Below, one piece after another: positions 34,426-49,802 of a stretch of 64,000 nucleotides of DNA. This DNA is from Bacteroides sp. (lineage in GTDB: Bacteria > Bacteroidota > Bacteroidia > Bacteroidales > GCA-2748055), in assembly GCA_011056635.1 (NCBI GenBank), contig DSEO01000153.1, positions 7,563 to 71,562 on the forward strand, in the 5' to 3' direction. Each line of letters begins with the position of its first letter. Positions within the stretch are counted from its first letter, which is position 1. The translations under genes and the position numbers were made by a program. The notes under the pieces are model-generated. The model did not search any database. It was not told where the DNA came from and saw only the letters and a list, made by a program, of their open reading frames with translations.

Positions 34426-34696
34426 TACAGCGGTTATCTTAAACAGTTATTATATTTGTCAATCCACATTCTAAAATTCAAGTCGCTCACCAATCCATCA
34501 ACTTCCCCAAATGCATTCGATTGTCTATCTTTGATCTACGCATTTTTTAAAGCCTGGCCATTGGCTAAATTTAAAAAAAAAAATAATTATCTCTGCTATG
34601 ATGGTTGTTTGGTGTTTTTTTACAGCAATATTTGCTTTCCTTCTTCATCCTTATGTTTTCATTGGCTATTATTGTTCAATCAATTATGATAGACCA

Positions 34697-35875
34697 ATGC
34701 ATCAACCACACATGTTCCCGGTTGCATCGATTGTTGCTTTTTTTCTTTTTCTGAATGCGTGCCAATACGATACATCCCGTTCTCAGTTCTACCATCCAGC
34801 TGAGTTTGAATCTTGCGAATCGACCGGTTTTGTATGGTCTGAAGACTACTATGAGATAGTACCAAAACTAATAGGAATCATATCAAAAAAGGACAAAGTA
34901 ACCCTTTTTGTAGGCAATATAAAGAAGGATACGATCCACATCAGGAATGTTTTGGATAATTACGGTTCCCTGCCCCAAAACGTCCGGTTCGTAATCATGG
35001 ATATGCCGCTGGATAATATATGGATCAGAGATTACGGTCCTGCTTTCCTCGTCAATCGGTCAGGTGAGAAGAAGATGGTTCAATTCACATACTTTTGGAC
35101 CGATCCTGAATTTATTAAAAATTATTCCACCATTACAGGGATCCCTGTGATAGTGAGCGCGTTTCAAAGCACTGGTGGTTCCAGGGAAGTAAATGGGAAA
35201 GGAACAATGATATTGTGTGAAGCACATGAAATGGAGGTAAACCAAAACAGATCCAAAAATGAGATTGAACAGGAGATGTTCAGTAAACTTGGCCAAAAAA
35301 AGATCATCTGGTTAAAAAAGGGAATTCCACAGGATGATAATTTTCGTTCCGGTCCCATTTATGACCAGATTTATCCAAAAGGGGTAAACGGTCATGTGGA
35401 TGAATTCTGCCGGTTCGCTAATGCAAACACCATATTCATCAGTAGTGTTTCGGAAGTTGAAGCAAACCGTCACCCAATACTTGCAGAAGCAAAGCAGAGA
35501 ATGGATGAAAATCTGGAAATTCTGAATCATAGTACAGATCAGGATGGTAATAAATTTAAAGTGATCGAGGTGCCTTTTGCCCCGTTGATCATTTCTGACC
35601 GAAGGTCAGGGCCAGAGGGAAAACTCGTCACCCTGGTTACCAGTTACATGAATTTTATAATTACCGATTCACTGATCATATTGCCATCCTATGTTTCGGA
35701 TACCTCAGAAGACAAAGTTCTGATAAATAAAGAACAAAAAGTACTGGATATATTTAAACAGACCTTTCCGGAAAGGCAGATTATCAAAGTACGGGCTGAT
35801 ACGCTCAACTATTACAGCGGGGGATTCCATTGCATCAGCATCCATGAACCATCGGCCGGTTCGGCAATAAAATAA
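34697..35875 (+). CDS. Agmatine deiminase / Porphyromonas-type peptidylarginine deiminase family (PF04371-like) lipoprotein
   Basis: Likely start MHQPHMFPVASIVAFFLFLNAC (lipobox). Family motifs NIWIRDYGP, GKGTMILCE and the C-terminal catalytic-Cys context YYSGGFHCISIHEP. Confidence 0.7.
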   Translation: MHQPHMFPVASIVAFFLFLNACQYDTSRSQFYHPAEFESCESTGFVWSEDYYEIVPKLIGIISKKDKVTLFVGNIKKDTIHIRNVLDNYGSLPQNVRFVIMDMPLDNIWIRDYGPAFLVNRSGEKKMVQFTYFWTDPEFIKNYSTITGIPVIVSAFQSTGGSREVNGKGTMILCEAHEMEVNQNRSKNEIEQEMFSKLGQKKIIWLKKGIPQDDNFRSGPIYDQIYPKGVNGHVDEFCRFANANTIFISSVSEVEANRHPILAEAKQRMDENLEILNHSTDQDGNKFKVIEVPFAPLIISDRRSGPEGKLVTLVTSYMNFIITDSLIILPSYVSDTSEDKVLINKEQKVLDIFKQTFPERQIIKVRADTLNYYSGGFHCISIHEPSAGSAIK

Positions 35876-36013: not shown

Positions 36014-37498
36014 ATGAGCAAAGAAAACGGAAGCGGTATTTCCAGAAGAAGATTTCTCGGAACCACGGCCGCTGCAACTGCAGGATTCACCATCATCCCA
36101 AGTCACGTTGTCAGCGGACTGGGATACACTCCTCCCAGTGATAAGCTGAACATCGCCGGGGTCGGCGTCGGGGGAATGGGACGCAGCAATCTCAGGGCCA
36201 TCAGGGACCAGAACATTGTAGCCCTGTGTGACGTGGACTGGAAATACGCCAAAACCTGTTTTGATGATTACCCGAATGCAAAAAAGTACTGGGACTGGAG
36301 GAAGATGTATGACGAAATGGGTAAATCCATCGATGCCGTGGTGGTGGCTACGGCCGACCATACCCATGCACTCGTGGCATCCCACGGGATGACCATGGGC
36401 ATGCACATGTATGTGCAGAAGCCCCTCACCCACTCGGTTTACGAATCCAGGCTGCTGACCAGGCTGGCCGATAAATACCAGGTGGCCACTTCCATGGGCA
36501 ACCAGGGTTCTTCCGGGGAAGGGGTCAACCTGATCGTGGAATGGATCCTGAACGGTGAGATCGGCGAAGTGAGGAAGGTGGAAGCATTCACCGACCGTCC
36601 CATCTGGCCGCAGGGACTGAATGTGCCCAAGGAGAAAATGAAGGTGCCCAAAACCCTGGACTGGGACCTGTTTACCGGTCCCGCCGTCATGAACGACTAC
36701 CATGAGATTTATACCCCCTGGAACTGGCGCGGATGGTGGGATTACGGAACCGGGGCACTCGGCGACATGGCCTGTCATATTCTGCACCCCGTTTTCGTAG
36801 GGCTGCAGCTGAAGTATCCCACCAAAGTACAGGGAAGCTCCACGCTGCTGCTGACCAAATGCGCACCCAATGCACAGATGGTCAGACTGACTTACCCCGA
36901 ACGCAAGCCTGCTCCCAGGGTGAAGTTCCCCGAAGTGGAGGTCACATGGTATGACGGCGGACTGCAGCCTATGAAGCCCAAGTGGTGGCCCGAAGGAAGG
37001 GATATGAATGATGCCGGCGGCGGTGTGCTTTTCCACGGATCCAAAGACACCCTTATCTGCGGATGTTACGGGAAAGACCCGTGGCTGCTTTCAGGCAGGG
37101 TCCCCGATGCCCCGAAGGTAAGGCGCCGCGTGGAAACCAGTCATGAGATGGACTGGGTCAGGGCCTGCAAGGAGAGTCCCGAAAACCGGGTCCAGACGGC
37201 ATCTCCCTTCAGTGAAGCGGGACCTTTCAATGAAATGGTGGTGATGGGGGTCAACGCGGTCCGTCTCCAGGGCCTGAACAAGGAACTGGAATGGGACGGC
37301 GAGAAGATGGAGTTCACCAATATCTCCGGCAGTGAAGAATTGCGCGTCTGCGTGGAGGATGGATTCTACATTGAAGATGGTAATCCCACCTTCGATAAAA
37401 CCTGGACCGAGCCTTTTTCGGCCAAAGCATTCGCCGAGGAACTGGTCAGGCATACACCGAGAGAAGGCAACTGGGAACTTCCCGGCATGCCTGCCTGA
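36014..37498 (+). CDS. Gfo/Idh/MocA-family oxidoreductase, TAT exported
   Basis: N-terminus MSKENGSGISRRRFLGTTAAATAGF. Rossmann start LNIAGVGVGGMG. It appears to be a paralogue of 11443-12954 (similar length and N-terminal layout). Confidence 0.8.
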   Translation: MSKENGSGISRRRFLGTTAAATAGFTIIPSHVVSGLGYTPPSDKLNIAGVGVGGMGRSNLRAIRDQNIVALCDVDWKYAKTCFDDYPNAKKYWDWRKMYDEMGKSIDAVVVATADHTHALVASHGMTMGMHMYVQKPLTHSVYESRLLTRLADKYQVATSMGNQGSSGEGVNLIVEWILNGEIGEVRKVEAFTDRPIWPQGLNVPKEKMKVPKTLDWDLFTGPAVMNDYHEIYTPWNWRGWWDYGTGALGDMACHILHPVFVGLQLKYPTKVQGSSTLLLTKCAPNAQMVRLTYPERKPAPRVKFPEVEVTWYDGGLQPMKPKWWPEGRDMNDAGGGVLFHGSKDTLICGCYGKDPWLLSGRVPDAPKVRRRVETSHEMDWVRACKESPENRVQTASPFSEAGPFNEMVVMGVNAVRLQGLNKELEWDGEKMEFTNISGSEELRVCVEDGFYIEDGNPTFDKTWTEPFSAKAFAEELVRHTPREGNWELPGMPA

Positions 37499-37532: not shown

Positions 37533-38327
37533 ATGAAAATGAAGCAAAAGAATATTCTGATTTTTATCTCAGCACTGCTGATCGGCGGTCTTGCCGCCTG
37601 TACTTCTTCGGGAAAAAAGGACAGTGAAGCCGAATCGGCCGAAGAGGTGAAGGCAACTCCCAATACCCTGAGCGACCAGGAAAAGGAAGAGGGCTGGATG
37701 TTGCTTTTCGACGGGGAAACCACCGAAGGCTGGCGGGGTTATAACATGGAAGCATTTCCCGACACAGGCTGGGCCATCGAGAACGGGGCCATCAAGTGCT
37801 CTGAGTCGGGCATGGGGGAAGCCGGATTCGGAGGTGATATCATCTATGACAAAAAGTTTACCAATTTCCATCTGAAACTTGACTGGATGATCTCGGAGGG
37901 TGGCAACTCGGGCATTTTTTTCCTGGTGCAGGAGATCCCGGACAAAAATATCTGGTACACCGCCCCGGAGTACCAGATCCTGGACAACTGCAGCAACCAC
38001 ATTGACAATACGCTGGGTGTGAACGGTAACCGGAGGGCCGGCAGCCTGTATGACCTGATCCCGCCGGAGCCCCAGAATGCAAAATGTGCCGATGAGTGGA
38101 ACCAATCGGAGATCATCGTTTACGAAGGAACCGTCGTTTTCCGGATGAATGGTGAAAATACCATGGAGTTCCACCTCTGGACCGACGAGTGGAACAAGAT
38201 GATCGAAGAAAGTAAGTTCCCGGATTTCAACCCAGATTTTGCCCGTGTGGCCAAAACCGGCTACATCGGCCTCCAGGACCACGGGCATGCCGTGTGGTTC
38301 CAAAACATCAAGATCAAGGAGCTCTGA
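37533..38327 (+). CDS. DUF1080 (3-keto-disaccharide hydrolase-like, PF06439) lipoprotein
   Basis: Lipobox LIGGLAAC. Typical motifs LFDGETTEGWRGY, GNSGIFF and the C-terminal GYIGLQDHGHAVWFQNIKIKEL. Confidence 0.8.
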   Translation: MKMKQKNILIFISALLIGGLAACTSSGKKDSEAESAEEVKATPNTLSDQEKEEGWMLLFDGETTEGWRGYNMEAFPDTGWAIENGAIKCSESGMGEAGFGGDIIYDKKFTNFHLKLDWMISEGGNSGIFFLVQEIPDKNIWYTAPEYQILDNCSNHIDNTLGVNGNRRAGSLYDLIPPEPQNAKCADEWNQSEIIVYEGTVVFRMNGENTMEFHLWTDEWNKMIEESKFPDFNPDFARVAKTGYIGLQDHGHAVWFQNIKIKEL

Positions 38328-38358
38328 CAAGGGATTGCGGTTCGGGAAACCATAACTC

Positions 38359-38435
38359 CCGGAGGCATCTCCAACCGCTGCTGAAATTCTTTTCTGCGAA
38401 AATAATTGTAGGCAGCTTATCGGAGATGCCTCCGG
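38359..38435. other. 77-nt rod-like hairpin (14-bp perfect outer stem) in a 431-bp non-coding gap
   Basis: CCGGAGGCATCTCC (38359-38372) pairs with GGAGATGCCTCCGG (38422-38435). Inner pairings are GCTGC/GCAGC (38377-81 / 38412-16) and ATTCTTTTC/GAAAATAAT. Confidence 0.7.
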
Positions 38436-38691
38436 AAGCAATATCCTGACGCAGATGCGGGCATCGCTGCCTGAACTGGTGCGAAGCAGCAGGTTTCGCA
38501 GCGATACCGTATACTGCGGAAGGCACGGCCACCAGGACATGAACGGCTTTCAGGTCGGGACCATATAACTCCTTTCAGTCCGTGATATAGTGTCCCTTCC
38601 CCTGAAATCCGTTCCTGTAGAATCCATCCGCAATGAAAGGTACAGGCCCATCTGAGAGGGGTTTATCCTGTGCGGAACCGGGAATAAGCCG

Positions 38692-38758: not shown

Positions 38759-41080
38759 TCAGAGGACCACGCCTTCCATGGACTTCTCCAGTGCACGCGC
38801 GTGGGTAAGGAATTCTTCCAGGGTCATCTCTTTGTAGAAAAGCAGCCCGTGGGTGGTCCTGACGCGGGGACTTTCATGTTGGTAGAAATAGTTCTTGCCC
38901 AGGAGCAGCTGCATCATTTTCAGCTGTTCCACCCAGATCCTTTTGGTAAGATCGCTGAATTTCCCGTCATGCTGGTAACTGGGGAAGGAAGCATCCACCT
39001 GGCTCAGGTAACTGTTTGTGAAAGCATCGTCCATCACTCCCATGGCATTCAGTGATACCGGTACAATGCGGTTGGCCTCTGCCGGATGGAACCGGTACCA
39101 TACATTCCTGTAGCCCCAGATCCTCAGGCCTGAGAGATCTTTTTCCCTGCTCCACAGCTTCAGGGCCTCGGCAATGACCTGGAGGACTTTGTAATGGGTA
39201 TCCGGACCGCTGCCTTCCGGGTCAAAAGCCAGGCTGACAATGGTGGGACTGATCTCGCGCAGCTGTGCCAGAATGGGCTGCACATCCCTTTCACGGTTCG
39301 GCTGCTCCGTAAAAACATCTCCCGTATAGAAACCCAGACGCATGTGGTGCACATTGCGGGACTGGATCCCGAAGCAGGCCCATACCAGTTCTTCCTCGAA
39401 TTCACGCACCATGCCTTTCAGCTTCTGGATATCAGGCAGGTTGATCTCGCCGTCATAGCTTTTTTTCAGGATCATCAGGATGTTGTTGATCTCATCCCTC
39501 AGCTGGTCCGCATTCTTCACCCCGTACAGGCCGACAATATCGCGCACCAGCCTGTGGGCCAGGCCGCGCCTGAGCTCATAATCCTCCCCCGAGGCCACTT
39601 TGAGAAGGTAATGGTTTACATCTTTGTCCCGTTTATACTTGTACCCGGTTTCAAAAAAATCCGGGTACCGGGTCATCTGGATCAGTCCCACATCCAGAAA
39701 ATGCCTGGTATCTTCCAGGGCTTCGATGATGAATTTGTTGGTCACCGCCGTAAATCCCGAAGTGAGGATCGAGAAAAAATTCGCGTTGGTCTCATTCCGC
39801 ATGAGCCGGTGGATATGCGGAAGCAGCCCCAGCATGATGTCGTCATGGTGGGGCCCCGTGTGGTAAAGAACCTGGCTTGTTTCGGTAAACATACCCTTCT
39901 CGAACCTTTCAATAGCGGACCGGATCACGGAAGGAACCGTATGCTCATCCAGTCCGGGGATCATCCTGCAGTACCGGTCCTCTTTCAAATCGCTCATGGT
40001 CAGATGGTGGCCGTATTTGGCCAGCTTCACACACAGATCGATGACAGCCCGGTCTGTTTTTTCCTGGGACCATTCTCCCTGGCTGTAGTAAGCATCCACG
40101 GATGACTGAAGGGATGAAGCGGCACCGGTGGTCAGGTAAAACCTTGCATGATCCAGCTTTGAAAGCGCACTGGCAGGATACAGGTTGGAAGGATTTTTCT
40201 CCAGCGCATCCCTCACCATGGGCGCCTTGGCCTCACCTGCAGCAAAAATAATGGCCACGGCTTCCGGATTGCAGGTAATGGTCTCCAGCCCGATGGTGAT
40301 CACCAGCCTGTTCCTGGAAACCTCGATGCCCCCCAGATCGGAGGCAGCCACCGCCTGGGTCTCGAAATTGGTCTCCGTCAACCTGGTGGTTGAAAAATGA
40401 TCCGATCCCCGGACATTGAAGGCAATATGGCCATCGGGACCAATGCCGCCCAGAAAAAAACCGATCCCTCCAAGCTCCCTGATCTTTTTCTCGTAATCGA
40501 CACACCAGTTATCGATGGAAAAGATGGAAGCCTGTTGCACTTTCTCAAACTGGCTTTTGGGCTCCCTGTACCTGAGGGTGAGGTCCACCCGGTTATCGGG
40601 GAACACCTCGGTAAAGTGACGGCCTTCAGCCAGGGGGATCTCATCTGAATTGATCAACAGTGCCCTTCGGGGATCCAGCCCGAACCCCCTGATATAATAT
40701 TTCATCACGTAATTGCAGAAACTGTTGTGCTGGCGGGAACTGATGGGATAAAATTCATCGATCTGTACAAACCGGAGCTTTCCCAGGGAAGGCTTGCCCA
40801 TCCGGCCAATCCCGTATTTGCTCCTCAGATCCCTGATCTTTCGGCTATCCCAGTGCTCCATCAGATAGGATGTCCATTTGATGAAATATTCGGGTGTTTT
40901 TCCGGTGGGCAGACTGATGATCCCTTCGGGATGCTCCCTGACCCACTCAAGGAACCTCAGGGCGGTAAAAAGTCCCAGCAGCGGAAAATTCTCCACCACG
41001 ATGTAAGGAATGCGGGTGTGCATAGCCTGTGAACCGGAAGTTTTATAGAACGCTGATTCTACTTTTGATATGAATTGCAT
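38759..41080 (-). CDS. nagB: Glucosamine-6-phosphate deaminase-like domain fused to an LmbE/PIG-L-type deacetylase-like domain (long Bacteroidota NagB form)
   Basis: NagB motif GIGPDGHIAFN in the N-terminal third. LmbE-type motif GPHHDDIMLG in the middle. The start could be 41080 or the Met at 41023. Confidence 0.7.
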   Translation of the reverse strand: MQFISKVESAFYKTSGSQAMHTRIPYIVVENFPLLGLFTALRFLEWVREHPEGIISLPTGKTPEYFIKWTSYLMEHWDSRKIRDLRSKYGIGRMGKPSLGKLRFVQIDEFYPISSRQHNSFCNYVMKYYIRGFGLDPRRALLINSDEIPLAEGRHFTEVFPDNRVDLTLRYREPKSQFEKVQQASIFSIDNWCVDYEKKIRELGGIGFFLGGIGPDGHIAFNVRGSDHFSTTRLTETNFETQAVAASDLGGIEVSRNRLVITIGLETITCNPEAVAIIFAAGEAKAPMVRDALEKNPSNLYPASALSKLDHARFYLTTGAASSLQSSVDAYYSQGEWSQEKTDRAVIDLCVKLAKYGHHLTMSDLKEDRYCRMIPGLDEHTVPSVIRSAIERFEKGMFTETSQVLYHTGPHHDDIMLGLLPHIHRLMRNETNANFFSILTSGFTAVTNKFIIEALEDTRHFLDVGLIQMTRYPDFFETGYKYKRDKDVNHYLLKVASGEDYELRRGLAHRLVRDIVGLYGVKNADQLRDEINNILMILKKSYDGEINLPDIQKLKGMVREFEEELVWACFGIQSRNVHHMRLGFYTGDVFTEQPNRERDVQPILAQLREISPTIVSLAFDPEGSGPDTHYKVLQVIAEALKLWSREKDLSGLRIWGYRNVWYRFHPAEANRIVPVSLNAMGVMDDAFTNSYLSQVDASFPSYQHDGKFSDLTKRIWVEQLKMMQLLLGKNYFYQHESPRVRTTHGLLFYKEMTLEEFLTHARALEKSMEGVVL

Positions 41081-41104
41081 ACGGCGGGTTTGTATCTGAT
41101 CTGT

Positions 41105-41866
41105 TCACATATAAAGCTCATCCAATTCTGTCATGGCAAGTTCCACCATCAGATCGGCAAGCTTGGCGGTCACCTCCTCAAAACATTTCCGGCCCTTTTC
41201 CCCGGTAGCCTTTCGGGGATCTCCGACCCCTGTATCATTCGTAGTACTGCTCCACTTCCTCTCGGCCCATGCCCAGGACTCATTCAGTGCCCGGACCCTG
41301 AATTTTTTCGCGGCTCCGCTCCCAGCCTCGGAAAGAGGCCGTACCAGGTCGGGCCGGATATGGAGCATCAGGCTGGTTTCCATTTCATCGGCATGGTCTC
41401 CTTCATGCTCGAACCACTCCTGCTTGTTCACCGACCGGAACCAGTTGCAGGTGGAGATGAACATCTCCGGGAACAGTCTCCCCACTTCCCTGATCATCTG
41501 CCTGAAATCATTGCCCCCGTGTCCGTTCACCACCAGCAGTTTATCAATGCCGTGACCGGCCAGGCTTTCCGCCAGATCGCCCAGGATGGCCATCTGCGTG
41601 CTCGGGTAAAGGTTCAGGGTCATTGCGATATCGGTCTGACCGGTGTTCACCCCCACCGGTATGGTGGGAAGGACAACCACCTTTGCGCCCCGCTCCCAGG
41701 CCACTTTTGCAGATTCGTACACAATGGCCTCCGATTCATAATTATCGGTGCCATACGGAAGGTGATAATTATGCGCCTCGGTGGCCCCCCAGGGCAGGAC
41801 CGCAAGCCGGTAATGCTCATCTTTTACTGTTTGCCAGCTGGTTTCAGCAAGAATATAAGGCCTCAT
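41105..41866 (-). CDS. Creatininase-family amidohydrolase
   Basis: 253 aa with WGATEAHNYHLPYGTD and VVNGHGGN, the metal-ligand motifs of the creatininase fold. No signal peptide. Confidence 0.75.
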   Translation of the reverse strand: MRPYILAETSWQTVKDEHYRLAVLPWGATEAHNYHLPYGTDNYESEAIVYESAKVAWERGAKVVVLPTIPVGVNTGQTDIAMTLNLYPSTQMAILGDLAESLAGHGIDKLLVVNGHGGNDFRQMIREVGRLFPEMFISTCNWFRSVNKQEWFEHEGDHADEMETSLMLHIRPDLVRPLSEAGSGAAKKFRVRALNESWAWAERKWSSTTNDTGVGDPRKATGEKGRKCFEEVTAKLADLMVELAMTELDELYM

Positions 41867-41950
41867 TTTTCTCGTGGAGTATGATAATCCGGTGAATAAC
41901 GGGTAAAATTAAAAAAAAACGGCACAAATAATGGGAAGACCGCCGGAGAA

Positions 41951-43114
41951 TCAATCCTGACGGAGGATCCGGCAGCGGGCATGGTATCTGTCCAGGATCT
42001 CCAGGGTCTCCCCTACGGGCAGGGCATCCATGCTTCTTCCGGACCGGCCCTCCATCGGGCCGGCCATGAACAGGGAATTGTAAATCGCTTCTTCGGTGGC
42101 TTCCACCACGGCCAGGAAGAGGGGTGACATGCGGTCGTTGCGGAGCCGCGGTCCCGACTGCTCGGCCTCACCCGACTGGTGGGGGATCCGCAACGCAGGA
42201 TGGGTACTGAACGCTATGGCATAATCGCCGCTCCCGTTGGAGGAAAATCCTCCGACCCTCCCGAAGGCCAGGAACGAGCGATCGCCCAGTCTTTCCAGGT
42301 TCCGGGATGAGAGCGGCGCATCGGTGGCGATGACGATCATGCATGAGCCGTCCACCTGGTATGGCACCCGTCCGGCCATGTAGTGATTTCCAAGCTCCTC
42401 TCCCACCGGTGCACCGTTGATGGTCAGGATCCCCCCGAAATTGGTCTGCACCAGCACCCCCACCGTATACCCTCCCATTTCCCCGGGCAGCACCCTGGAC
42501 GCGGTCCCTATCCCCCCTTTGAATCCCATACAGATCGTGCCTGTCCCTGCGCCCACGCAACCTTCAGTCACCGGTCCGGATCCGGCCGATGCAATGGCTT
42601 CGCGCACATGGGAAATGCGCACATGTCCCCCGCGAATATCATGCAACCACCCGTCGTTGGTCTCTCCTGCCAAAGGGTTGACCGACCGGACCTCTTCATT
42701 TCCGGGCAATGCAAGCATATACTGCACGAGTCCCTCTGCTGCCGTGAACACATCCAGTGTATTGGTCAGTGCAACCGGGGTTTCCAGGTTGCCCAGTTCC
42801 TTCACCTGGGTGAATCCGACAGCTTTCCCGAAACCATTTCCCACACTTACAGCCGCCGGCACCTTCTCCTGGAACAGGTTGCCATCGTGTGGGATGATCA
42901 CAGTCACCCCCGTCCTGACCGAATCACCTTCGATCAATGTCCGGTGACCCACCCTGACTCCCGCCACATCCGTAATGGCATTCCACTGACCGGGGGTTAG
43001 GATCCCCGGCTCGATCCCCAGTTCCCTGGCTCGTTGCCGGTCCTGGGAGAAGCATGTCAGGCTGCCAACCAGAAGGACCGGCCAGAAAACGGCCAGGAAT
43101 GGATGCATGTACAT
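41951..43114 (-). CDS. P1/S58 (DmpA/BapA-type) aminopeptidase family, with signal peptide
   Basis: N-terminal hydrophobic leader (FLAVFWPVLLVGSLTCFSQ). Family motifs NAITDVAGVRVGH and GAGTGTICMGFKGGIGTAS. Confidence 0.75.
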   Translation of the reverse strand: MYMHPFLAVFWPVLLVGSLTCFSQDRQRARELGIEPGILTPGQWNAITDVAGVRVGHRTLIEGDSVRTGVTVIIPHDGNLFQEKVPAAVSVGNGFGKAVGFTQVKELGNLETPVALTNTLDVFTAAEGLVQYMLALPGNEEVRSVNPLAGETNDGWLHDIRGGHVRISHVREAIASAGSGPVTEGCVGAGTGTICMGFKGGIGTASRVLPGEMGGYTVGVLVQTNFGGILTINGAPVGEELGNHYMAGRVPYQVDGSCMIVIATDAPLSSRNLERLGDRSFLAFGRVGGFSSNGSGDYAIAFSTHPALRIPHQSGEAEQSGPRLRNDRMSPLFLAVVEATEEAIYNSLFMAGPMEGRSGRSMDALPVGETLEILDRYHARCRILRQD

Positions 43115-43118
43115 TTTT

Positions 43119-43877
43119 TCAGTTTTCAGGTTTCAGTTTTGAAGGATCGATACTGCGGATCAGTGCCCTGGCAAGGACCCTGGTCGGGTCGATAACCATC
43201 AGGCTTCCGGCTTCCTCCGCACTCACCGCCATGGGGATCTCGGTACATCCCAGAATCACCGCCTCCGCCCCATGCTTTTCGAGGTAAGCGATCCCGCTGA
43301 GAAGATTTTCCCTGGCCCTGGGGTGGACGGGATCCGGGCAGGATTTGATCCCGTATTCCGGATCGTATATGGCGGGATGGATCAATCTTTCCTGCAACTC
43401 AGGAGCAGGCAGAACGACCTGGTATCCCATATTCTCCAGTGCTTTCGCGTACACCCCGCTCCGATAGGTCCCGGTAGTGGAAAGCACACCGATGCTGGAA
43501 AGCCCGGGGTAAGTTTTTGCCAGGTAAACAATGGTTTCGTCGATCATATGAAGCAGCCTGATGCGGCTGGCGCTTGCCTGCAGCCTGTCAAGGATCACCC
43601 CGAAGATCTTTTCTGCATGTGCGGTGTTGCAGGGGATGCCCGCAACCGTTGCACCGGCCGCTTCCAACCGGATCAGTACCTCTGCAATGACCACACCGGG
43701 ATTTACCCCGGTCTTTCCCAGCAAATATGCGGTACGGTCCGGGATCCCGGAAGGCAGGGAGAAAAGCAGGGTGTCCAGATGCTCCTGGTCGTTTCCCGCC
43801 ACGGTATTGTCAAGCACTTTGCGCAACAGGTCAAGTCCGGCATAAGGCCCTGTGCCCCCCACAATCCCGATCATCAT
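43119..43877 (-). CDS. Aspartate/glutamate-type amino-acid racemase family
   Basis: IGIVGGTGPYAG at the N-terminus and both catalytic-Cys contexts (IPCNTAH and LGCTEIP). The start overlaps the lacI stop by 4 nt (ATGA). Confidence 0.8.
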   Translation of the reverse strand: MMIGIVGGTGPYAGLDLLRKVLDNTVAGNDQEHLDTLLFSLPSGIPDRTAYLLGKTGVNPGVVIAEVLIRLEAAGATVAGIPCNTAHAEKIFGVILDRLQASASRIRLLHMIDETIVYLAKTYPGLSSIGVLSTTGTYRSGVYAKALENMGYQVVLPAPELQERLIHPAIYDPEYGIKSCPDPVHPRARENLLSGIAYLEKHGAEAVILGCTEIPMAVSAEEAGSLMVIDPTRVLARALIRSIDPSKLKPEN

Positions 43878-44923
43878 CCAGCAACAGGTAAGGGTTTTTT
43901 CTTCATGGAGGATTCCCTGACGACCAGCTGATGATCCAGTACAATGGTTTTTGTCAGTACCGGATAGTCCTGGCCGAGTATTTCGATGAGCGTGGATGCG
44001 GCCACCTCCCCCATTTCCCTGCCGGGGTAGTGGATGGTTGTCAGCCCGGGTTCGATCACCCTGGAGAGATGCACATTGTTGAACCCGACCACGGCGATAT
44101 CCTCCGGGACCCGGATCCCGTGCTGTTTCAGTTCACATATCACGGAAACAGCCGAAGAATCATTGGCGGCAAATATCCCGTCCGGTGGAGAATCCATCTT
44201 CAGTATCTTTTCTACCGCAAACGTGCCGGTCTCCTCGTTCAGGATATCGATGAATGTCAGCTGTTTATCATCGGAGATCCCGTGTTCTGCTAGCGCTTTC
44301 CTGTAACCCGCGAACCGTTCCTTGTACACATTACAGACCAGGTTCCCCCCGATGAACATGATCCTGCGGCATCCCTGTTCGATGAGGTGTGATGTCGCAT
44401 CATATCCCGCTTTTTTGTTATCGATCACCACACTTGTGCATTTGTAATGAGAATCCACCTTGACCCGGTCAAACAGGACCACCGGGATCCCTTTCCCGAA
44501 AAACATGTCCAGGTGGTTCAGATCCCTGGTATCACAGGCCAGGGAGATCAGCAGTCCCTCCACCCGGCTGTTGTACATGGTGGATATGTTGACCTTTTCT
44601 TTTTCCACAGATTCATGCGACTGACTGATGATCAGGTTATAGCCCTTCTGATTCACTTTCTTTTCAATACCGGCCACGACCGAAGACTGGAAGCTGCTGT
44701 CAAGCCTGGGCAGGATCACTCCCAGCGTGTTGGACCTGTTCTTTCTCAGGTTCCGGGCAAAGGTATTCTGCTGATACCCCATGGCCCGGGCCTTATCGAT
44801 GATCTTCCTGGTGGTCTCTTTGCGGATGGCGGGATGATTTCTCAATCCCCTGCTCACCGTGGAAGCTGAAAGGTTCAGTGCCTTGGCAATATCATATATG
44901 GTAACCTCTTTTTTCTGGTTCAT
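43874..44923 (-). CDS. LacI-family transcriptional regulator
   Basis: N-terminal HTH VTIYDIAKALNLSASTVSRGLRNHP followed by a periplasmic-binding-protein-like sugar-binding core. 349 aa. Confidence 0.9.
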   Translation of the reverse strand: MNQKKEVTIYDIAKALNLSASTVSRGLRNHPAIRKETTRKIIDKARAMGYQQNTFARNLRKNRSNTLGVILPRLDSSFQSSVVAGIEKKVNQKGYNLIISQSHESVEKEKVNISTMYNSRVEGLLISLACDTRDLNHLDMFFGKGIPVVLFDRVKVDSHYKCTSVVIDNKKAGYDATSHLIEQGCRRIMFIGGNLVCNVYKERFAGYRKALAEHGISDDKQLTFIDILNEETGTFAVEKILKMDSPPDGIFAANDSSAVSVICELKQHGIRVPEDIAVVGFNNVHLSRVIEPGLTTIHYPGREMGEVAASTLIEILGQDYPVLTKTIVLDHQLVVRESSMKKKPLPVAG

Positions 44924-44984
44924 GGGATAAAATCCCGGTTAACCGGATTGTGGTATTAAATGTAAAAAAAATCCGCCATTTTCA

Positions 44985-45000
44985 TTGCAATCGGTTGCAA
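44985..45000. promoter_or_regulatory. LacI-family-type operator candidate TTGCAATCGGTTGCAA in the divergent lacI / UROD-like promoter region
   Basis: 16-nt near-palindrome (7 of 8 pairs) with a central CG. It lies 33 nt upstream of the GTG at 45033 and 62 nt upstream of the lacI start. Its reverse complement recurs at 49734-49749. Confidence 0.65.
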
Positions 45001-45032
45001 TTTTTCTACATTTATGATGAAAAAATTGACAA

Positions 45033-46064
45033 GTGACCGAAGCTCAATGGAATAAACTCCGGGATGTCATTGACGGAAAAGCATTTAATCCCATTCCCAC
45101 CGGATTCATCGTGGACAGTCCCTGGTTGCCCAACTGGTACGGAGTAAATATTCTCGATTATTTTACAAATGACGAAATCTGGCTGAATGCAAACCTGCAT
45201 GTGGCGGATACATTCCCCGGTGTCATGTTCCTTCCCGGTTTCTGGTCTGAATTCGGAATGTGTACGGAACCATCGGCATTCGGTTCAAAATGCGCCCTCC
45301 CGAAGAATGAGTTTCCCAACACACACAGGGTGATCCATTCCATGGAAGAAATACCGAAAATGAAAAAGCCGGATCCCAAGACGGACGGTTTTGCCCCCTT
45401 CATGCTCAACCGCCTGCTGCTTAACAGGCAAAAAATCGAGGACAGCGGTCACCGGATCTGCTTTTCGGTATCCAGGGGTCCGCTCAATATCGCCTCTTTC
45501 CTGATGGGGATGACCGAATTCATGACCGCGATGATCACGAATCCGGAAGAGGTCCATCAGCTCCTCGATCTGATCAATGAATACCTGCTCGAATGGCATG
45601 AACTGCAGGCAGCGTCCATCCCCACCATCGACGGAATCTTCGTCCTGGATGACATCATCGGCTTTATCGGGGAAGAAGAATTCAGGGAATTCGGTTTGCC
45701 CTATTTCAAAAAGCTTTTCAGCAGGGAGGCATCGGTGAAGTTCCTGCATAACGATGCCACCTGCAAGTCTTCCATCAAATACATGAACGAGATGGGCGTC
45801 AACCTTTTCAATATGGGTTTTGAATCAGATCTCAATGAATTGAAAACGCTCACGATGGACCGTGTCACCATGATGGGGAACATCCCTCCCAGGGATGTAC
45901 TGGCCAACGGCACCGGCGAAGAGATTGAAAAAGCGGTGAAGGCTCTGATCGGGGGACTGAAGCAGAAAAGCAGGGTCATCATGTCCTGCGGCGGAGGAAT
46001 GCCCCCGGATGTGACCTCGGAACAGATCCGGGCTTTCACGGACGCGGTCGCAAAGTACAGCTGA
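45033..46064 (+). CDS. Uroporphyrinogen-decarboxylase (URO-D/MtaA-like) family protein, cytoplasmic
   Basis: 343 aa with a GTG start; no in-frame ATG lies upstream. The overall URO-D-family pattern includes GPLNIASFLMG, DGIFVLDD..G.I..EEF.EFGLPYFKKL, FLHNDA and MMGNIPPRDVL. No signal peptide. Confidence 0.7.
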   Translation: MTEAQWNKLRDVIDGKAFNPIPTGFIVDSPWLPNWYGVNILDYFTNDEIWLNANLHVADTFPGVMFLPGFWSEFGMCTEPSAFGSKCALPKNEFPNTHRVIHSMEEIPKMKKPDPKTDGFAPFMLNRLLLNRQKIEDSGHRICFSVSRGPLNIASFLMGMTEFMTAMITNPEEVHQLLDLINEYLLEWHELQAASIPTIDGIFVLDDIIGFIGEEEFREFGLPYFKKLFSREASVKFLHNDATCKSSIKYMNEMGVNLFNMGFESDLNELKTLTMDRVTMMGNIPPRDVLANGTGEEIEKAVKALIGGLKQKSRVIMSCGGGMPPDVTSEQIRAFTDAVAKYS

Positions 46065-46090
46065 AACAGATGATATAATATATATATGGT

Positions 46091-47347
46091 ATGAAACGAA
46101 CACTAACAATCACACTGCTGCTGGTCGCCCTGCAAATATCAGCCCAGGAAATCGCAAGTTTGAATGTTTCTGCAGGTGACGTTGGCCGCCTGGATTGCCC
46201 GGTTTGCGTAAACCTGGACCAGATCAACCATAATGAGGACAGCGGCAGCCTGCTGCTCTTTGAGGTTGTCGGTAACAAGCAAGTTCCTGTTCCCTGTCAG
46301 CTGGAGACCGGACACTCCACCAGGCTGTGGTTTATACTTGCCGGCGAAACCGCCAAAGGGGAAAGCCGGCGGTTCGTTCTTCTCAGGCAGGAGGGGAACC
46401 CGGCATCCACTCCTGTCAGGTTGCATAAAAAGCATCAGAGCCTCAACCTGAGTTACCAGGATCATCCTGTACTGGATTACCAGTTCGAAACGATGTACCC
46501 GCCCGAGGGAGTTCCGGTCCTGTTCAAGCGTTCAGGCTTCATTCATCCCCTGTGGTCCCCCGACGGACAGGTCCTTTCGAGGATCCAGGCACCGGACCAC
46601 TATCACCATTACGGGATCTGGGGTCCCTGGACGAAAACCCATATCAACGGCCGGGAGGTGGACTTTTGGAACCTGATGAAAGGAGAAGGAACCGTCAGAT
46701 TCAGCGGTTTCCTCTCTGAAATAGAAGGACCTGTCTACAGCGGTTTTAAAGCCTTACAGGAGCATATTGATTTCGGCGGACGGGGAGAAGACCGGGTGGC
46801 CATGAACGAGGTGCTGGACGTCCGGGCCTGGAATGTGGGGAAAGGCGATGCATGGCTGATCGATTACACCACCACGCTGAATACCCCGCTCGATTCAGGG
46901 ATCATGCTGGATGCCTACCGGTATGGCGGCGGGATCGGATACCGGGCCACCGGGGACTGGCACAAGGATAACTGCACCGTCCTCACCTCCGAAGGCAAAG
47001 ACAGGTTGACTGCGGACGGCAGCAAAGCGAAGTGGTGCATTGTGGAAGGAGCGTCTGTCTCGGAAAAAGGCAGAAGCGGCATCCTGTTCATGGGGCACAC
47101 TTCCAACCGGGATTTCCCGGAACCCATGCGGGTATGGCCCGTGGACCAGAACCGGGGTCGGGGGGACATGTACTTCGAGTTCTGCCCCATCCGGCACAAG
47201 GACTGGAAACTGGATGAGGGCAGGGATTATACCCTGAAGTACCGCCTGCTGGTGTTCGACGGAAATGTTTCCGCGGAAGAGGCGGAGATGTACTGGCAGG
47301 GATTCGCCAATCCTCCCAGGGTTGAGATCCTGGGACCTGACAAATAA
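46091..47347 (+). CDS. PmoA-like / DUF6807 family protein, secreted (long form)
   Basis: Signal peptide MKRTLTITLLLVALQISAQE. Family core PDHYHHYGIWGPWTKTHINGREVDFWN. Confidence 0.65.
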   Translation: MKRTLTITLLLVALQISAQEIASLNVSAGDVGRLDCPVCVNLDQINHNEDSGSLLLFEVVGNKQVPVPCQLETGHSTRLWFILAGETAKGESRRFVLLRQEGNPASTPVRLHKKHQSLNLSYQDHPVLDYQFETMYPPEGVPVLFKRSGFIHPLWSPDGQVLSRIQAPDHYHHYGIWGPWTKTHINGREVDFWNLMKGEGTVRFSGFLSEIEGPVYSGFKALQEHIDFGGRGEDRVAMNEVLDVRAWNVGKGDAWLIDYTTTLNTPLDSGIMLDAYRYGGGIGYRATGDWHKDNCTVLTSEGKDRLTADGSKAKWCIVEGASVSEKGRSGILFMGHTSNRDFPEPMRVWPVDQNRGRGDMYFEFCPIRHKDWKLDEGRDYTLKYRLLVFDGNVSAEEAEMYWQGFANPPRVEILGPDK

Positions 47348-47359
47348 CACATTGCACAG

Positions 47360-48262
47360 ATGATGAATAGAAAGAGCGCATTGTATATCATCCCGGTGCT
47401 TTGCCTGATCGCAATACAGGGCCCGGCACAGAAGAAAGTAACAGCCGAAAAGCTGGGCGATAAGATCGAGATCAGGATCAACGGGGACCTGCTGACAAAT
47501 TACATCCTTTCCACATACGAGAAATATCCTTTCTTTTTCCCGGTGAACGGTCCCTCGAAGGCAAGTGTAACCTCCATGAGGAATGCCAATTACCCCCATC
47601 ACAGTTCCCTTTTCTTCGGGTGTGACCGGGTAAACGGGGGCAATTACTGGCAGGAGGGACTGGACGAGGGACAGATCATTCCCCTGAGGGCCGATATCCT
47701 GGAATCGGGAAGTGACAGGGTGGTCATTGAGAATGAAAATATCTGGAAACGGCCAGGGGCCATGGCACCCATCAGGGATGTGCGGACCATCAAGGTTACT
47801 GCTCCTTCCGATGCGATGTACCAGATCGACTTTGAGATCATCATGGAAATGTTGATGGATGTGACCATCGAAAAAACGAACCACTCGCTCCTGAGCGTAA
47901 GGATGGACCCTGACCTGGCCGTCACCAACGGGGGAACCATGGTGAATGCGGAAGGCGAGACCGGGGAGAAGGACACCTTCGGGAAACGCTCTCCGTGGAT
48001 GGACTATCACGGAGCCCGGATGGGTACCAAAGAAGGCATTGCCATTCTTCAGCACCCGTCCAATGAATGGTTCCCGGCACCCTGGTTCACCCGGGATTAC
48101 GGTTTTTTTTCTCCCACACCCATGTACTGGCCTGAAAACGGGAAGAATACGGTACTGCAAAAAGGCCGGCTGCTGAAACTGCGGTACAGGGTCCTGGTAC
48201 ATACCGGCGATCATCAGGAAGCCGGCATTGCGGCCCAGTTTGAAAAGTACAGCGGCGAATAG
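47360..48262 (+). CDS. PmoA-like / DUF6807 family protein, secreted (short form)
   Basis: Signal peptide MMNRKSALYIIPVLCLIAIQGPAQ. Family core YPHHSSLFFGCDRVNGGNYWQ. Confidence 0.65.
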   Translation: MMNRKSALYIIPVLCLIAIQGPAQKKVTAEKLGDKIEIRINGDLLTNYILSTYEKYPFFFPVNGPSKASVTSMRNANYPHHSSLFFGCDRVNGGNYWQEGLDEGQIIPLRADILESGSDRVVIENENIWKRPGAMAPIRDVRTIKVTAPSDAMYQIDFEIIMEMLMDVTIEKTNHSLLSVRMDPDLAVTNGGTMVNAEGETGEKDTFGKRSPWMDYHGARMGTKEGIAILQHPSNEWFPAPWFTRDYGFFSPTPMYWPENGKNTVLQKGRLLKLRYRVLVHTGDHQEAGIAAQFEKYSGE

Positions 48263-48310
48263 GCCGGATCATCATGAATGCATGTTCAATCCTATAAAAA
48301 CCATAAACCC

Positions 48311-49687: not shown

Positions 49688-49733
49688 ATTTATGAAGTTA
49701 TCTCTTGGCCAATTAAAAAGTTTTTGTAACTTG

Positions 49734-49749
49734 TTGCAACCGATTGCAT
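49734..49749. promoter_or_regulatory. LacI-family-type operator candidate TTGCAACCGATTGCAT upstream of SusC
   Basis: 15 of 16 nt are identical to the reverse complement of 44985-45000. It lies 54 nt upstream of the SusC ATG (49803). Confidence 0.65.
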
Positions 49750-49802
49750 AAGCAAATCAAATAAACCAACCCAATTTACCTAACTAATCTAAAACTAATT
49801 CT

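Follow-up and report, generated by a model that had tools for sequence, protein, structure and literature searches.

Results

Organisation of the locus

The window, by which we mean the whole 64,000-nt stretch of Bacteroides sp. DNA that was analysed, contains in its ORF listing five minus-strand genes between positions 38759 and 44923. The genes and sites considered here are as follows.

36014-37498, plus strand: BT_2158-family glycoside 3-dehydrogenase, convergent neighbour (NF058561, 869 bits, cut-off 750)
37533-38327, plus strand: DUF1080 3-keto-disaccharide hydrolase, convergent neighbour (PF06439, 163.6 bits)
38759-41080, minus strand: NagB-like plus PIG-L/LmbE-like two-domain protein, 773 aa
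41105-41866, minus strand: creatininase-fold metal hydrolase, predicted cytoplasmic, 253 aa
41951-43114, minus strand: S58/DmpA-family (P1) aminopeptidase, predicted exported, 387 aa
43119-43877, minus strand: Asp/Glu-type racemase, PLP-independent, predicted cytoplasmic, 252 aa
43874-44923, minus strand: LacI/GalR-family repressor, 349 aa, first gene of the string
44985-45000: operator O1, TTGCAATCGGTTGCAA, a perfect LacI-type palindrome (0 mismatches) in the lacI/URO-D divergent intergenic region
45033-46064, plus strand: URO-D/MtaA-like protein, first gene of a divergent operon at 45033-49687 (Pfam, NCBIfam)
46091-47347, plus strand: DUF6807 protein, predicted exported (Pfam, N-terminus)
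47360-48262, plus strand: second DUF6807 protein, predicted exported (Pfam, N-terminus)
48278-49687, plus strand: Gfo/Idh/MocA oxidoreductase, predicted TAT-exported (Pfam, NCBIfam, N-terminus)
49734-49749: operator O2, TTGCAACCGATTGCAT, with an exact core TGCAACCGATTGCA, 54 nt upstream of SusC
49803-52739, plus strand: SusC-like TonB-dependent transporter (Pfam Plug, TonB_dep_Rec_b-barrel)
52760-54490, plus strand: SusD-like protein (Pfam SusD_RagB)
54555-56360, minus strand: AmpG-like MFS permease, in an ampG-type block at 54555-63191 (Pfam)
56332-57771, minus strand: SpoIID/LytB-like protein, same block (Pfam)
57768-58730, minus strand: DUF4922 protein, same block (Pfam)
58724-60199, minus strand: GT2, same block (Pfam)
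60207-63191, minus strand: Golvesin_C/fn3 protein, same block (Pfam)

From lacI to the 773-aa gene the junctions read -4 (a 4-nt ATGA overlap), 4, 84 and 24 nt, and both coordinates and junctions are exactly those on which a sequence-only reading of this DNA had based its description of a tightly packed string. A simple scan, not tuned to Bacteroidota, found no terminator-like sites in the junctions and a count not above that of shuffled sequence. The 84-nt gap between the S58 and creatininase genes and the junction between the creatininase and 773-aa genes may contain internal promoters; among relatives, the spacing ahead of the 773-aa gene ranges from 23 to 147 nt. As for the families proposed in that reading, LacI, racemase, S58 and creatininase pass curated Pfam thresholds, whereas the 773-aa protein falls below threshold in both of its domains.

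A LacI-type repressor and its palindromic operators

The repressor matches the Pfam LacI helix-turn-helix at 35.1 bits (cut-off 27) and Peripla_BP_3 at 117.8 bits, with no NCBIfam equivalog at cut-off. A scan of the window found the exact palindrome TGCAAnCGnTTGCA, with 12 specified bases, at 44986 and 49735, for which simple arithmetic predicts about 0.004 exact matches per 64 kb. Next to O1, on either strand, stands a TACATTTA box that, read from the sequence, has one mismatch to the Bacteroidota -7 motif TAnnTTTG. Orthologues of the repressor (59-84% identity) occur in the related loci L087, L088, L158 and L168, and all four have this operator upstream. In L088 and L168 its position matches that of O1, and in L087 and L158 it precedes LacI; L168 also keeps the O2-equivalent site upstream of SusC, so that both operator positions are conserved there. 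The palindrome is missing from the six LacI-less relatives examined. Within the window, no operator precedes the creatininase or the 773-aa gene, weaker matches at 13064 and 5250 lie near cellulase-type genes, and operator-like sites lie near Gfo/GH9/GH5 genes.

The idea that the string is under LacI-type control is thus made plausible by a perfect palindrome in the promoter region and by the same palindrome upstream of LacI orthologues at four other loci, and one sugar-type repressor is probably common to the five genes. The URO-D/DUF6807/Gfo operon has O1 in common with lacI, an arrangement found again in L168 and L088. Since a single operator type stands both at lacI/URO-D and before SusC, the five genes, the URO-D, DUF6807 and Gfo genes and SusCD make up one candidate regulon.

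Racemase and S58 peptidase form a portable cassette

The racemase belongs to PF01177 Asp_Glu_race (96.1 bits, cut-off 31) and exceeds the cut-off of TIGR00035 (138.4 over 93.1 bits); it stays below the cut-off of the CuyB equivalog (172.8 bits, cut-off 190). Its two catalytic cysteine motifs, recognised from the letters alone, are borne out by alignment to the Pyrococcus horikoshii Asp racemase 1jfl, in which the cysteines of both GIPCNTAH and LGCTEIP have counterparts. The peptidase matches PF03576 Peptidase_S58 over its full length (383.7 bits, cut-off 23.9), and its closest solved relatives, at 180-298 bits, are 2drh and 5tzb ('D-aminopeptidase'), DmpA (1b65) and BapA. Compared with 2drh it carries an extra hydrophobic N-terminal extension of 27 residues, a leader, and the G256|S257 pair at the DmpA self-cleavage position is invariant. 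It is probably an exported, self-processing aminopeptidase, of the D-aminopeptidase kind.

These two genes are a portable two-gene cassette. The racemase lies directly upstream of S58 at 17 of 31 loci whose S58 identity is 70% or higher and at none of 37 more distant ones; the pair stands by itself in L173 and L174, and some pairs sit in non-sugar contexts. Among the 21 close S58 loci whose upstream sequence is long enough, just 3 have LacI, racemase and S58 together, a trio that recurs in L088 and L158 at 61-83% LacI identity. Elsewhere S58 neighbours include class IV aminotransferase and D-serine-dehydratase-like genes, and an unpaired orthologue in L170 lies in a D-amino-acid/DAP island with DAP dehydrogenase, Ala racemase, beta-lactamase-fold (DD-peptidase-like) and class IV aminotransferase genes.

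Creatininase-fold and 773-aa genes

The creatininase-fold protein is a clear member of PF02633 (204.6 bits, cut-off 31.3), and among solved structures it comes closest to 3lub, which is uncharacterised and labelled a 'putative creatinine amidohydrolase'. It missed the equivalog cut-offs for creatininase (67 against 235 bits), MftE (83 against 172) and IolN (32.6 against 245). Creatininase and 773-aa genes travel together only in a narrow clade: the 773-aa gene follows in L085, L103, L105, L169 and L171, and a G3DH-like trio (Gluconate_2-dh3, GMC, cytochrome c) in L087 and L168. In this clade the creatininase gene is often found beside a URO-D-like gene, which precedes it at no fewer than eight loci, and beside such a three-subunit GMC/cytochrome c sugar dehydrogenase; in L090, L107 and L111 the following genes fall into the trio's size clusters (about 203, 551 and 351 aa), a match by size only.

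The 773-aa protein had been called a NagB+LmbE fusion. The resemblance to both families stands and membership does not, all curated thresholds being missed: the N-terminal NagB/6-phosphogluconolactonase-like domain reaches 21 of 27 bits in Pfam, 81.9 of 236.9 for TIGR00502 and 186 of 384 for PRK02122, and the C-terminal, divergent PIG-L/LmbE-like domain 15.9 of 28.2 bits (E 0.019). PIG-L is nevertheless the sole recurrent family among orthologues (25 of 30 matching). PTGKTPE, QIDEF, GPDGHIAFNVRG, PHHDD and PDTH are invariant in 12 close orthologues (alignment A1), as are PHHDD and the P, T and H of PDTH, with D nearly so, in 30 more diverse C-terminal domains (alignment A3). The ring-opening triad of NagB is His/Glu/Asp, and the GPDGHIAFNVRG motif has Val in place of the catalytic Glu.

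This family, with more than 6800 homologues, is widespread in Bacteroidota, and its usual partners are a ROK sugar kinase (adjoining at 38 of 79 loci), AmpG, SpoIID/LytB, NamZ and a D-lactate-dehydrogenase-like flavoprotein; clusters of MFS, NamZ, AmpG and SpoIID genes recur around it. Thirteen loci have the order DUF4922-SpoIID-AmpG-773-aa gene, and in L007, L008 and L010 the gene directly follows AmpG. In 80 other species-level genomes carrying the 773-aa gene, its neighbours never include the racemase, S58, creatininase or this LacI. The convergent BT_2158/DUF1080 pair lies outside the operon, and its synteny with the 773-aa gene is kept in L085, L087, L103, L105, L169, L171 and L172.

Conservation of the five-gene order

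A single conserved five-gene pathway is not what the relatives display. All five genes recur in the same order in just one other lineage, L168, at 66-88% protein identity, and there three sugar-dehydrogenase genes interrupt the string. In most close relatives the place of LacI-racemase is taken by an Asn-synthase-like and radical-SAM-like pair, and some close relatives are without S58. Nor is the DUF6807 operon a constant companion: L087 has the LacI, creatininase and 773-aa genes and no DUF6807 genes, in the intermediate order SpoIID-AmpG-LacI-...-773-aa gene. In the window, the ampG block lies 13.5 kb upstream of the 773-aa gene on the same strand, and the LacI regulon therefore seems to have entered between ampG, the gene for an importer of cell-wall fragments, and the gene that ordinarily comes next.

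Discussion

Our preferred reading, to which we give roughly even odds (about 0.5), is a LacI-repressed composite operon of separately inherited modules, inserted, in this lineage, between ampG and its normal follower. The regulon plausibly serves the use of a peptidoglycan-derived amino sugar and D-amino-acid peptides, a substrate that we infer. The link between amino sugar and D-amino acid drawn in the sequence-only reading finds support in gene context, in the company that the 773-aa gene keeps with AmpG, SpoIID, NamZ and ROK genes and in that of S58 with racemase, with class IV aminotransferase or D-serine dehydratase, and within the L170 island. SusCD would take in glycopeptide fragments derived from cell walls, or else a related amino-sugar glycoside. 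Once in the periplasm, peptides would lose N-terminal D- or L-Ala-type residues to the exported S58 Ntn-hydrolase, and the glycan would be processed by the TAT-exported oxidoreductase and DUF6807 proteins. The nearby AmpG-like permease is a candidate for the import step, after which the racemase may turn released D-Asp/D-Glu-type residues into the L-form and the creatininase-fold enzyme may hydrolyse an amide or oxidised-sugar intermediate. In the 773-aa protein, the LmbE-like domain would deacetylate and the NagB-like domain deaminate and isomerise an amino-sugar phosphate towards glycolysis, and a sugar ligand would relieve LacI repression. A patchwork of this kind suggests, short of proof, that bacterial cell walls are scavenged. 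Against this reading stand the possible internal promoters in two of the junctions, the NagB-like domain without its triad Glu, the sub-threshold scores of both 773-aa domains, the rarity of LacI-racemase-S58 among close S58 loci (3 of 21), and the Gfo/Idh/MocA enzyme and relatives' G3DH-like trio, which point to glycoside oxidation. These oxidation genes and the weaker operator matches at 13064 and 5250 suit a plant- or algal-glycoside substrate as well as they suit peptidoglycan.

A regulon for glycoside oxidation through 3-keto-sugars is a doubtful alternative. LacI would sense a glycoside, Gfo/Idh/MocA (GMC/cytochrome c in relatives) would oxidise it, the creatininase-fold protein would act on an oxidised-sugar intermediate and the 773-aa protein on an amino-sugar or sugar-phosphate product, with the racemase-S58 pair hitch-hiking as unrelated D-amino-acid peptide salvage. 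The dehydrogenase trio right after creatininase in L087 and L168, the size-only matches in L090, L107 and L111, the URO-D-like gene ahead of creatininase, the weak relationship of the regulon's predicted TAT-exported Gfo/Idh/MocA to BT_2158, the bona fide BT_2158/DUF1080 pair as conserved convergent neighbour and the operator-like sites near Gfo/GH9/GH5 genes all favour it. IolN, a creatininase-family member, hydrolyses diketo-inositol, and the weak IolN match would fit too, but it lies far under its cut-off; the persistence of LacI-racemase-S58 across 61-84% LacI divergence is left unexplained, and the strongest outside contexts of the 773-aa gene concern peptidoglycan and amino sugars.

It is unlikely that the five genes make up, together with the DUF6807 operon, one conserved pathway dedicated to a single substrate, be it a glycopeptide or an amino-acylated glycan. 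Tight packing, an operator common to the divergent polysaccharide utilisation locus, the whole set in L168 and the trio in L088 and L158 speak for it; however, the genes are separable nearly everywhere else, as seen in the 0 of 80 773-aa loci carrying the others, in racemase-S58 pairs alone in unrelated contexts, in relatives that swap LacI-racemase or are without S58, and in L087. At the other extreme, there may be no functional unit, only an insertion hot spot upstream of the 773-aa gene, with adjacency produced by cassette traffic and the 773-aa gene (perhaps also creatininase) using its own promoters. Highly variable interval content among close relatives, the spread of gaps before the 773-aa gene and the missing operators ahead of it and creatininase agree with such a hot spot, but promoters would have little space in a 24-nt junction or a 4-nt overlap, no junction terminators turned up in the simple scan and L168 keeps order and operator, which makes it very unlikely.

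Comparison with known systems

The peptidase shares its Gly|Ser site with the S58 (P1) DmpA/BapA/D-aminopeptidase group (Ochrobactrum anthropi DmpA, P. horikoshii 2drh) and differs in its predicted export signal and its pairing with an Asp/Glu-type racemase. In canonical amino-sugar catabolism, NagA is the GlcNAc-6-P deacetylase and NagB the GlcN-6-P deaminase, and LmbE-family deacetylases include MshB and the archaeal chitobiose deacetylase. The 773-aa protein has the NagB motifs PTGxTP, xDEx and DGHxAFN in one domain and an LmbE-type His-x-Asp-Asp ... His metal motif in the other, with a ROK sugar kinase as commonest neighbour. Unlike in NagA and NagB, both activities would share one chain, NagB Glu is replaced by Val, and the deacetylase would be built on the LmbE fold instead of the amidohydrolase fold of NagA.

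The lytB-ampG-ybbC operon of Tannerella forsythia has been shown experimentally to serve muropeptide uptake; Tanf_08345-08385 comprises a xanthan-lyase-like gene, two gtf genes, lytB, ampG, ybbC/NamZ and murTKQ, with Tanf_08345-08365 co-transcribed (PMC5388701). The window has a block in matching order (large secreted protein, GT2, DUF4922, SpoIID/LytB, AmpG), and elsewhere in the Bacteroidota the 773-aa gene comes right after ampG, with NamZ adjoining. Among the window ORFs scanned, MurT, MurK, MurQ and NamZ were not seen. In contrast to T. forsythia, the window has a 13.5-kb insertion with the LacI regulon downstream of ampG, followed by the 773-aa gene, and its predicted LacI-type regulator differs from the hybrid two-component GppX.

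BT_2158 and DUF1080 functions are known from the 3-keto-disaccharide pathway BT2156-BT2160 of Bacteroides thetaiotaomicron (PMC8121099). The convergent pair resembles it, and the regulon's Gfo/Idh/MocA enzyme is, like BT2158, TAT-exported by prediction; however, the pair lies on the opposite strand without a LacI operator, and the regulon's own oxidoreductase reaches only 122 bits against the BT_2158 family. Finally, SusC/SusD beside enzyme genes and a regulator, with an operator upstream of SusC, recall classical Bacteroidota polysaccharide utilisation loci, but a LacI-type regulator stands in place of SusR, HTCS or ECF, and the regulon core, which has no glycoside hydrolase, consists instead of oxidoreductases, DUF6807 proteins, a peptidase, a racemase and amidohydrolase-type proteins.

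A gene string of mixed family membership

Five minus-strand ORFs, tightly spaced, lie exactly where a sequence-only reading had placed an operon. The window belongs to the genome of an uncultured member of the Bacteroidota, a Bacteroides sp. MAG in NCBI naming.

Genes of the five-gene string, from the ORF listing
43874-44923 (-), LacI-type regulator
43119-43877 (-), Asp/Glu-type racemase
41951-43114 (-), S58 peptidase
41105-41866 (-), creatininase-family protein
38759-41080 (-), 773-aa protein with a NagB-like N-terminal and a PIG-L/LmbE-like C-terminal half ("fusion" in the gene orders below)

The racemase start overlaps the lacI stop in ATGA, and the subsequent gaps are 4, 84 and 24 nt. The families proposed in that reading held for the first four proteins, all of which exceed curated cut-offs, but not for the NagB and LmbE halves of the last, which fall below them. 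The LacI protein combines an N-terminal HTH (PF00356, 35.1 bits; cut-off 27) with a periplasmic-binding-protein-like effector domain (Pfam PF13377, 117.8 bits). The racemase matches PF01177 (96.1 bits; cut-off 31) and TIGR00035 (138.4 bits; cut-off 93.1), and both catalytic Cys align with the solved structure 1jfl; identity as the cysteate racemase CuyB (NF052483) was ruled out at 172.8 bits against an equivalog cut-off of 190. The S58 protein, which starts with a hydrophobic leader of 27 residues, covers profile positions 1-306 of 307 in PF03576 (383.7 bits) and has G256-S257, invariant in 13 sequences, at the DmpA self-cleavage position; this full-length match and the predicted Gly/Ser self-processing nucleophile are those of an S58/DmpA (P1) peptidase. 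The creatininase-fold protein clearly belongs to PF02633 (204.6 bits; cut-off 31.3) and stays below the cut-offs of TIGR04448 (67.1 against 235 bits), MftE TIGR03964 (82.9 against 172) and IolN NF041098 (32.6 against 245), and solved creatininases score only 23-26 bits with it.

As for the 773-aa protein, its description as a NagB+LmbE fusion captures what appears to be a resemblance of both halves rather than membership. The alignment of the N-terminal half with NagB is confined to its C-terminal portion and misses every cut-off (PF01182, 21 versus 27 bits; TIGR00502, 81.9 versus 236.9), and the protein reaches 186 of the 384 bits set for the "deaminase-like" PRK02122. In E. coli NagB, the catalytic Asp base and the Asp/His/Glu ring-opening triad are D72, D141, H143 and E148. 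The 773-aa protein keeps the NagB motifs PTGxTP, DE and DGH, with D108, D216 and H218 present and invariant, but its triad is broken by a Val in place of the ring-opening Glu (GHIAFNVRG versus GHIAFNEPG in 3hn6). The C-terminal half scores 15.9 bits with PIG-L (PF02585; cut-off 28.2), the only recurrent Pfam family among diverse orthologues (25/30, best E 8.5e-6). PHHDD is invariant in 30 orthologues, as are P, T and H of PDTH, its D being nearly so, and the two motifs appear to correspond to the H-x-D-D ... H zinc motif of LmbE. A C-terminal-domain profile built from 30 diverse orthologues gave noise only, and no LmbE match, among PDB sequences, and an AlphaFold2 model from a shallow, 12-sequence alignment had a low mean pLDDT of 55, with both catalytic-motif regions below 50. 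This two-domain protein is very widespread, with more than 6800 homologues; our literature search found no functional study of NagB+LmbE fusions, of DUF6807/PF14100 or of creatininase in Bacteroidota.

The putative operon is a mosaic of separable units

Comparison with loci from other genomes and contigs (L-numbers) showed the putative operon to be a mosaic in which four separable units are joined. The suggestion of one conserved five-gene pathway was not borne out: the only other locus with all five genes in the window's order is L168, at 66-88% identity and with a dehydrogenase trio inserted. Among 80 loci from a metagenome scan for S58 neighbourhoods, we separated S58 proteins of at least 70% identity from a more distant clade, and the window's partners occurred in the former.

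Neighbours of S58 (loci at identity of at least 70%; distant loci)
Racemase immediately upstream: 17/31; 0/37
Creatininase within 1.4 kb downstream: 9/17; 0/31
Window-type LacI upstream: 3/21; 0/29
773-aa gene within 8 kb: 5/13; 0/24

The racemase-S58 pair also stands alone in unrelated contexts (L173, L174). At another locus (L113, 3087-3842) the genes after the pair encode an exported aldo/keto-reductase-like protein and a canonical, stand-alone LmbE/PIG-L deacetylase carrying AHPDDAE, so that an LmbE-type enzyme is independently paired with this cassette. L088, the closest relative that is not identical, has a 243-aa sulfotransferase-family gene (3504-4235) between lacI and racemase, a further sign that this interval takes in genes.

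The creatininase gene and the 773-aa gene occur together only in a narrow clade (L085, L103, L105, L168, L169, L171, L172), in which the 773-aa protein shares at least 76% identity with the window copy; many contigs of coinciding length in two homologue searches agree with this. The commonest architecture of this clade is SusD-SusC divergent from Asn-synthase-like - radical-SAM-like - [S58] - [URO-D-like] - creatininase - [cellulase-like] - fusion, then convergent DUF1080 - BT_2158-like; in the window, L088, L158 and L168, LacI-racemase stands instead of the Asn-synthase-like and radical-SAM-like genes. These two encode a 442-aa PP-loop protein and a 305-318 aa partner with faint radical-SAM similarity, and they lie upstream of S58 or creatininase, divergent from SusC/SusD, in the majority of close relatives (L085, L169, L171, L172 and L103-L105). 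A 320-aa URO-D/MtaA-like gene usually precedes the creatininase gene; the window's own divergent URO-D gene was ruled out as its counterpart, the two being paralogues at 23% identity. Together, the Asn-synthase-like, radical-SAM-like, URO-D/MtaA-like and creatininase-fold genes form an uncharacterised conserved gene set. In L087 and L168, the genes after creatininase are a Gluconate_2-dh3/GMC/cytochrome c trio similar to glucoside 3-dehydrogenases, and in L090, L107 and L111 they belong to the same size clusters, matched by size rather than by Pfam.

The terminal gene and the ampG neighbourhood

In species-representative genomes, an alignment-driven scan found the 773-aa gene at 80 loci (51-72% identity), none of which had a racemase, S58, creatininase or window-type LacI gene within 10 kb. 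The gene most often neighbours a co-directional ROK sugar kinase gene (38/79 loci), and an MFS sugar transporter, the exo-muramidase NamZ, an AmpG-like permease and SpoIID also recur. Thirteen loci have ampG-type orders, including DUF4922-x-SpoIID-AmpG-fusion and, alternatively, DUF4922-SpoIID-x-AmpG-(FAD/Fe-S D-lactate-dehydrogenase-like)-fusion with NamZ alongside, and outside the window NamZ flanks the fusion in 10 loci. These SpoIID-AmpG-NamZ orders are of the type of the Tannerella forsythia lytB-ampG-ybbC operon, which is co-transcribed and mediates muropeptide uptake (PMC5388701). The window has such a block on the same strand as the string:

54555-63191 (-), ampG-type block: large Golvesin_C/fn3 protein, GT2, DUF4922, SpoIID, AmpG

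Its GT2, DUF4922, SpoIID and AmpG-like MFS genes (54555-60199, -) agree with the T. forsythia type (PMC5388701), and neither NamZ/YbbC nor MurTKQ was found among the window ORFs scanned, which were part of all its ORFs. Judged by these gene orders, the terminal 773-aa gene ancestrally belonged to the ampG muropeptide/amino-sugar neighbourhood, and on the simplest reading some 13.5 kb (41081-54554) would have been inserted in the window lineage between ampG and the gene usually found downstream of it. One locus (L087) is intermediate, with the order SpoIID-AmpG-LacI-URO-D-creatininase-(three-subunit GMC/cytochrome c dehydrogenase)-cellulase-like-fusion. In five others (L051, L058, L064, L066, L080), a gene for a 972-aa D-lactate/glycolate-oxidase-like protein, in which a FAD-linked oxidase is joined to 4Fe-4S and CCG domains, separates ampG from the 773-aa gene, and NamZ lies on the opposite side. 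Since D-lactate is the product of MurNAc-6-P etherase, a D-lactate-oxidase-like neighbour would fit a role of this neighbourhood in MurNAc catabolism.

A conserved predicted operator and a candidate regulon

The string has a conserved predicted LacI operator. The 109-nt lacI/URO-D intergenic region holds the putative site TTGCAATCGGTTGCAA (44985-45000), a perfect LacI-type palindrome with a central CG. On either side of it, on both strands, lie TACATTTA boxes one mismatch from TAnnTTTG, a motif with no exact copy in the relevant intergenic regions. A second candidate operator, with the 14-nt core exact, is found 54 nt upstream of SusC, and exact matches to the operator's 12 specified bases number 3 in 64 kb against about 0.004 expected. 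The same operator precedes LacI orthologues in L087, L088, L158 and L168, in the last at both equivalent positions, and it is absent from six related loci without LacI; in the window, none was found ahead of the creatininase or 773-aa gene. Given these sites, the five genes, the URO-D/DUF6807/Gfo genes and SusCD form one candidate LacI regulon. Counts from a sigma-70 promoter and intrinsic-terminator scan, a scan unsuited to Bacteroidota, showed no improvement over shuffled sequence.

The plus-strand genes that run divergently from lacI encode a URO-D/MtaA-like protein, two exported DUF6807 proteins, a TAT-exported Gfo/Idh/MocA oxidoreductase, SusC and SusD. A SusC/SusD pair beside enzymes and a regulator, with a candidate operator upstream of SusC, is the makeup of a Bacteroidota PUL; an obligatory adjacency of the five genes to the DUF6807 operon was not upheld. 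Convergent with the 773-aa gene are genes for a DUF1080 3-keto-disaccharide hydrolase and a BT_2158-family glycoside 3-dehydrogenase (869 bits; cut-off 750), which together make up the 3-keto-disaccharide pathway demonstrated by experiment in B. thetaiotaomicron (PMC8121099). An ORF overlapping the DUF1080 gene (37569-38540, -) has no family match and was treated as spurious.

Further operator copies lie away from the string. A third exact core (TGCAACCGATTGCA, 5250-5263) falls within the coding sequence of a xylose-isomerase-like TIM-barrel ORF (4873-5775, -), and a one-mismatch copy (13064-13077) occupies the divergent gap between two genes:

11443-12954 (-), 503-aa Gfo/Idh/MocA protein
13194-17147 (+), 1317-aa T9SS-secreted protein

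Because of these two copies, the regulon may extend to the Gfo - GH9/GH5 - RraA-like - AhpC/thioredoxin - TIM-barrel operon. The corresponding genes directly adjoin the cluster in L087 and L169. Near these candidate outlying sites, a T9SS-sorted 1151-aa GH9+GH5 enzyme (7865-11320, -) and a GH5+CBM6 enzyme (17222-19216, +) indicate a capacity for cellulose or beta-glucan degradation.

Between these genes and the BT_2158-like gene, three tandem SusC/SusD pairs interleaved with fasciclin-domain proteins span 19231-34425, where a G+C of 0.43-0.46, compared with 0.53-0.59 in the flanks, suggests horizontal acquisition. A similar block adjoins the BT_2158-like gene in L172 and L085. A Porphyromonas-type peptidyl-arginine deiminase/agmatine-deiminase-family gene (34598-35875, +) follows in the window's lowest-G+C stretch (0.40), and at the equivalent place it is present only in same-organism copies (L001, L002).

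Discussion

What might this composite do? An orthologue of the S58 protein at 70% identity, found on many contigs, lies within an island of D-amino-acid and cell-wall-peptide catabolism (L170, 1-21146) together with meso-DAP dehydrogenase, a class IV aminotransferase, an Amidohydro_3 D-aminoacylase-type amidohydrolase, alanine racemase, five beta-lactamase-fold genes, a PALP enzyme and M1/M20/S9 peptidases. The organism appears to be abundant, since its S58 protein turns up in 237 indexed blocks of the collection. This island, and the racemase, class IV aminotransferase and D-serine-dehydratase-like (DsdA-like) genes that neighbour further orthologues, support a role of the S58 clade in acting on D-amino-acid-containing peptides, very possibly cell-wall stem peptides, and are the contextual grounds for a putative D-aminopeptidase/D-Ala-amidase activity.

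We give about even odds (roughly 0.5) to a composite LacI regulon that takes up and breaks down cell-wall-derived glycopeptide material. The exported S58 enzyme would trim peptides in the periplasm, the racemase would act in the cytoplasm, and the 773-aa protein would deacetylate and deaminate the amino sugar. The proposed connection of the string with amino sugars as well as D-amino acids stays plausible, albeit without a single conserved pathway behind it. On the other hand, an oxidative glycoside pathway, in which an oxidised sugar would be the substrate of the creatininase-fold enzyme and racemase-S58 would be a passenger, accounts for the locus at least as well, as the oxidoreductases, DUF6807 proteins and URO-D-like genes, along with the dehydrogenase trio of the relatives, all fit it. 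Most of the doubt about the composite regulon concerns its substrate rather than its mosaic structure, which can be read directly from the locus comparisons.

A more ambitious proposal, which we consider unlikely, is that the 773-aa protein is the missing cytoplasmic amino-sugar enzyme of the Bacteroidota ampG pathway, using GlcNAc-6-P or even MurNAc-6-P via an altered NagB-type active site, and that insertion of the LacI regulon (SusCD, periplasmic oxidoreductase/DUF6807, exported D-aminopeptidase, racemase, creatininase-fold amidase) expanded this pathway into a "peptidoglycan utilisation locus", one that would allow this sediment lineage to grow on exogenous cell-wall necromass.

Sediments and guts hold a major pool of organic nitrogen and D-amino acids in the form of peptidoglycan and, to our knowledge, the genes for its catabolism in Bacteroidota are mostly unknown, except for the MurNAc genes of Tannerella. 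Our analysis provides three testable candidates: the 773-aa protein syntenic with ampG, NamZ and ROK kinase, the portable cassette of racemase and exported S58, and the predicted LacI operator that would mark out a small regulon. If the cell-wall link is true, functions could be assigned to several large uncharacterised families; if it is false, the locus still illustrates clearly how catabolic operons arise when modules are inserted into a conserved backbone. Overall, the locus is a variant that combines known kinds of system, namely a PUL, a LacI catabolic operon and peptidoglycan recycling genes, from building blocks that belong to recognised but largely uncharacterised families.
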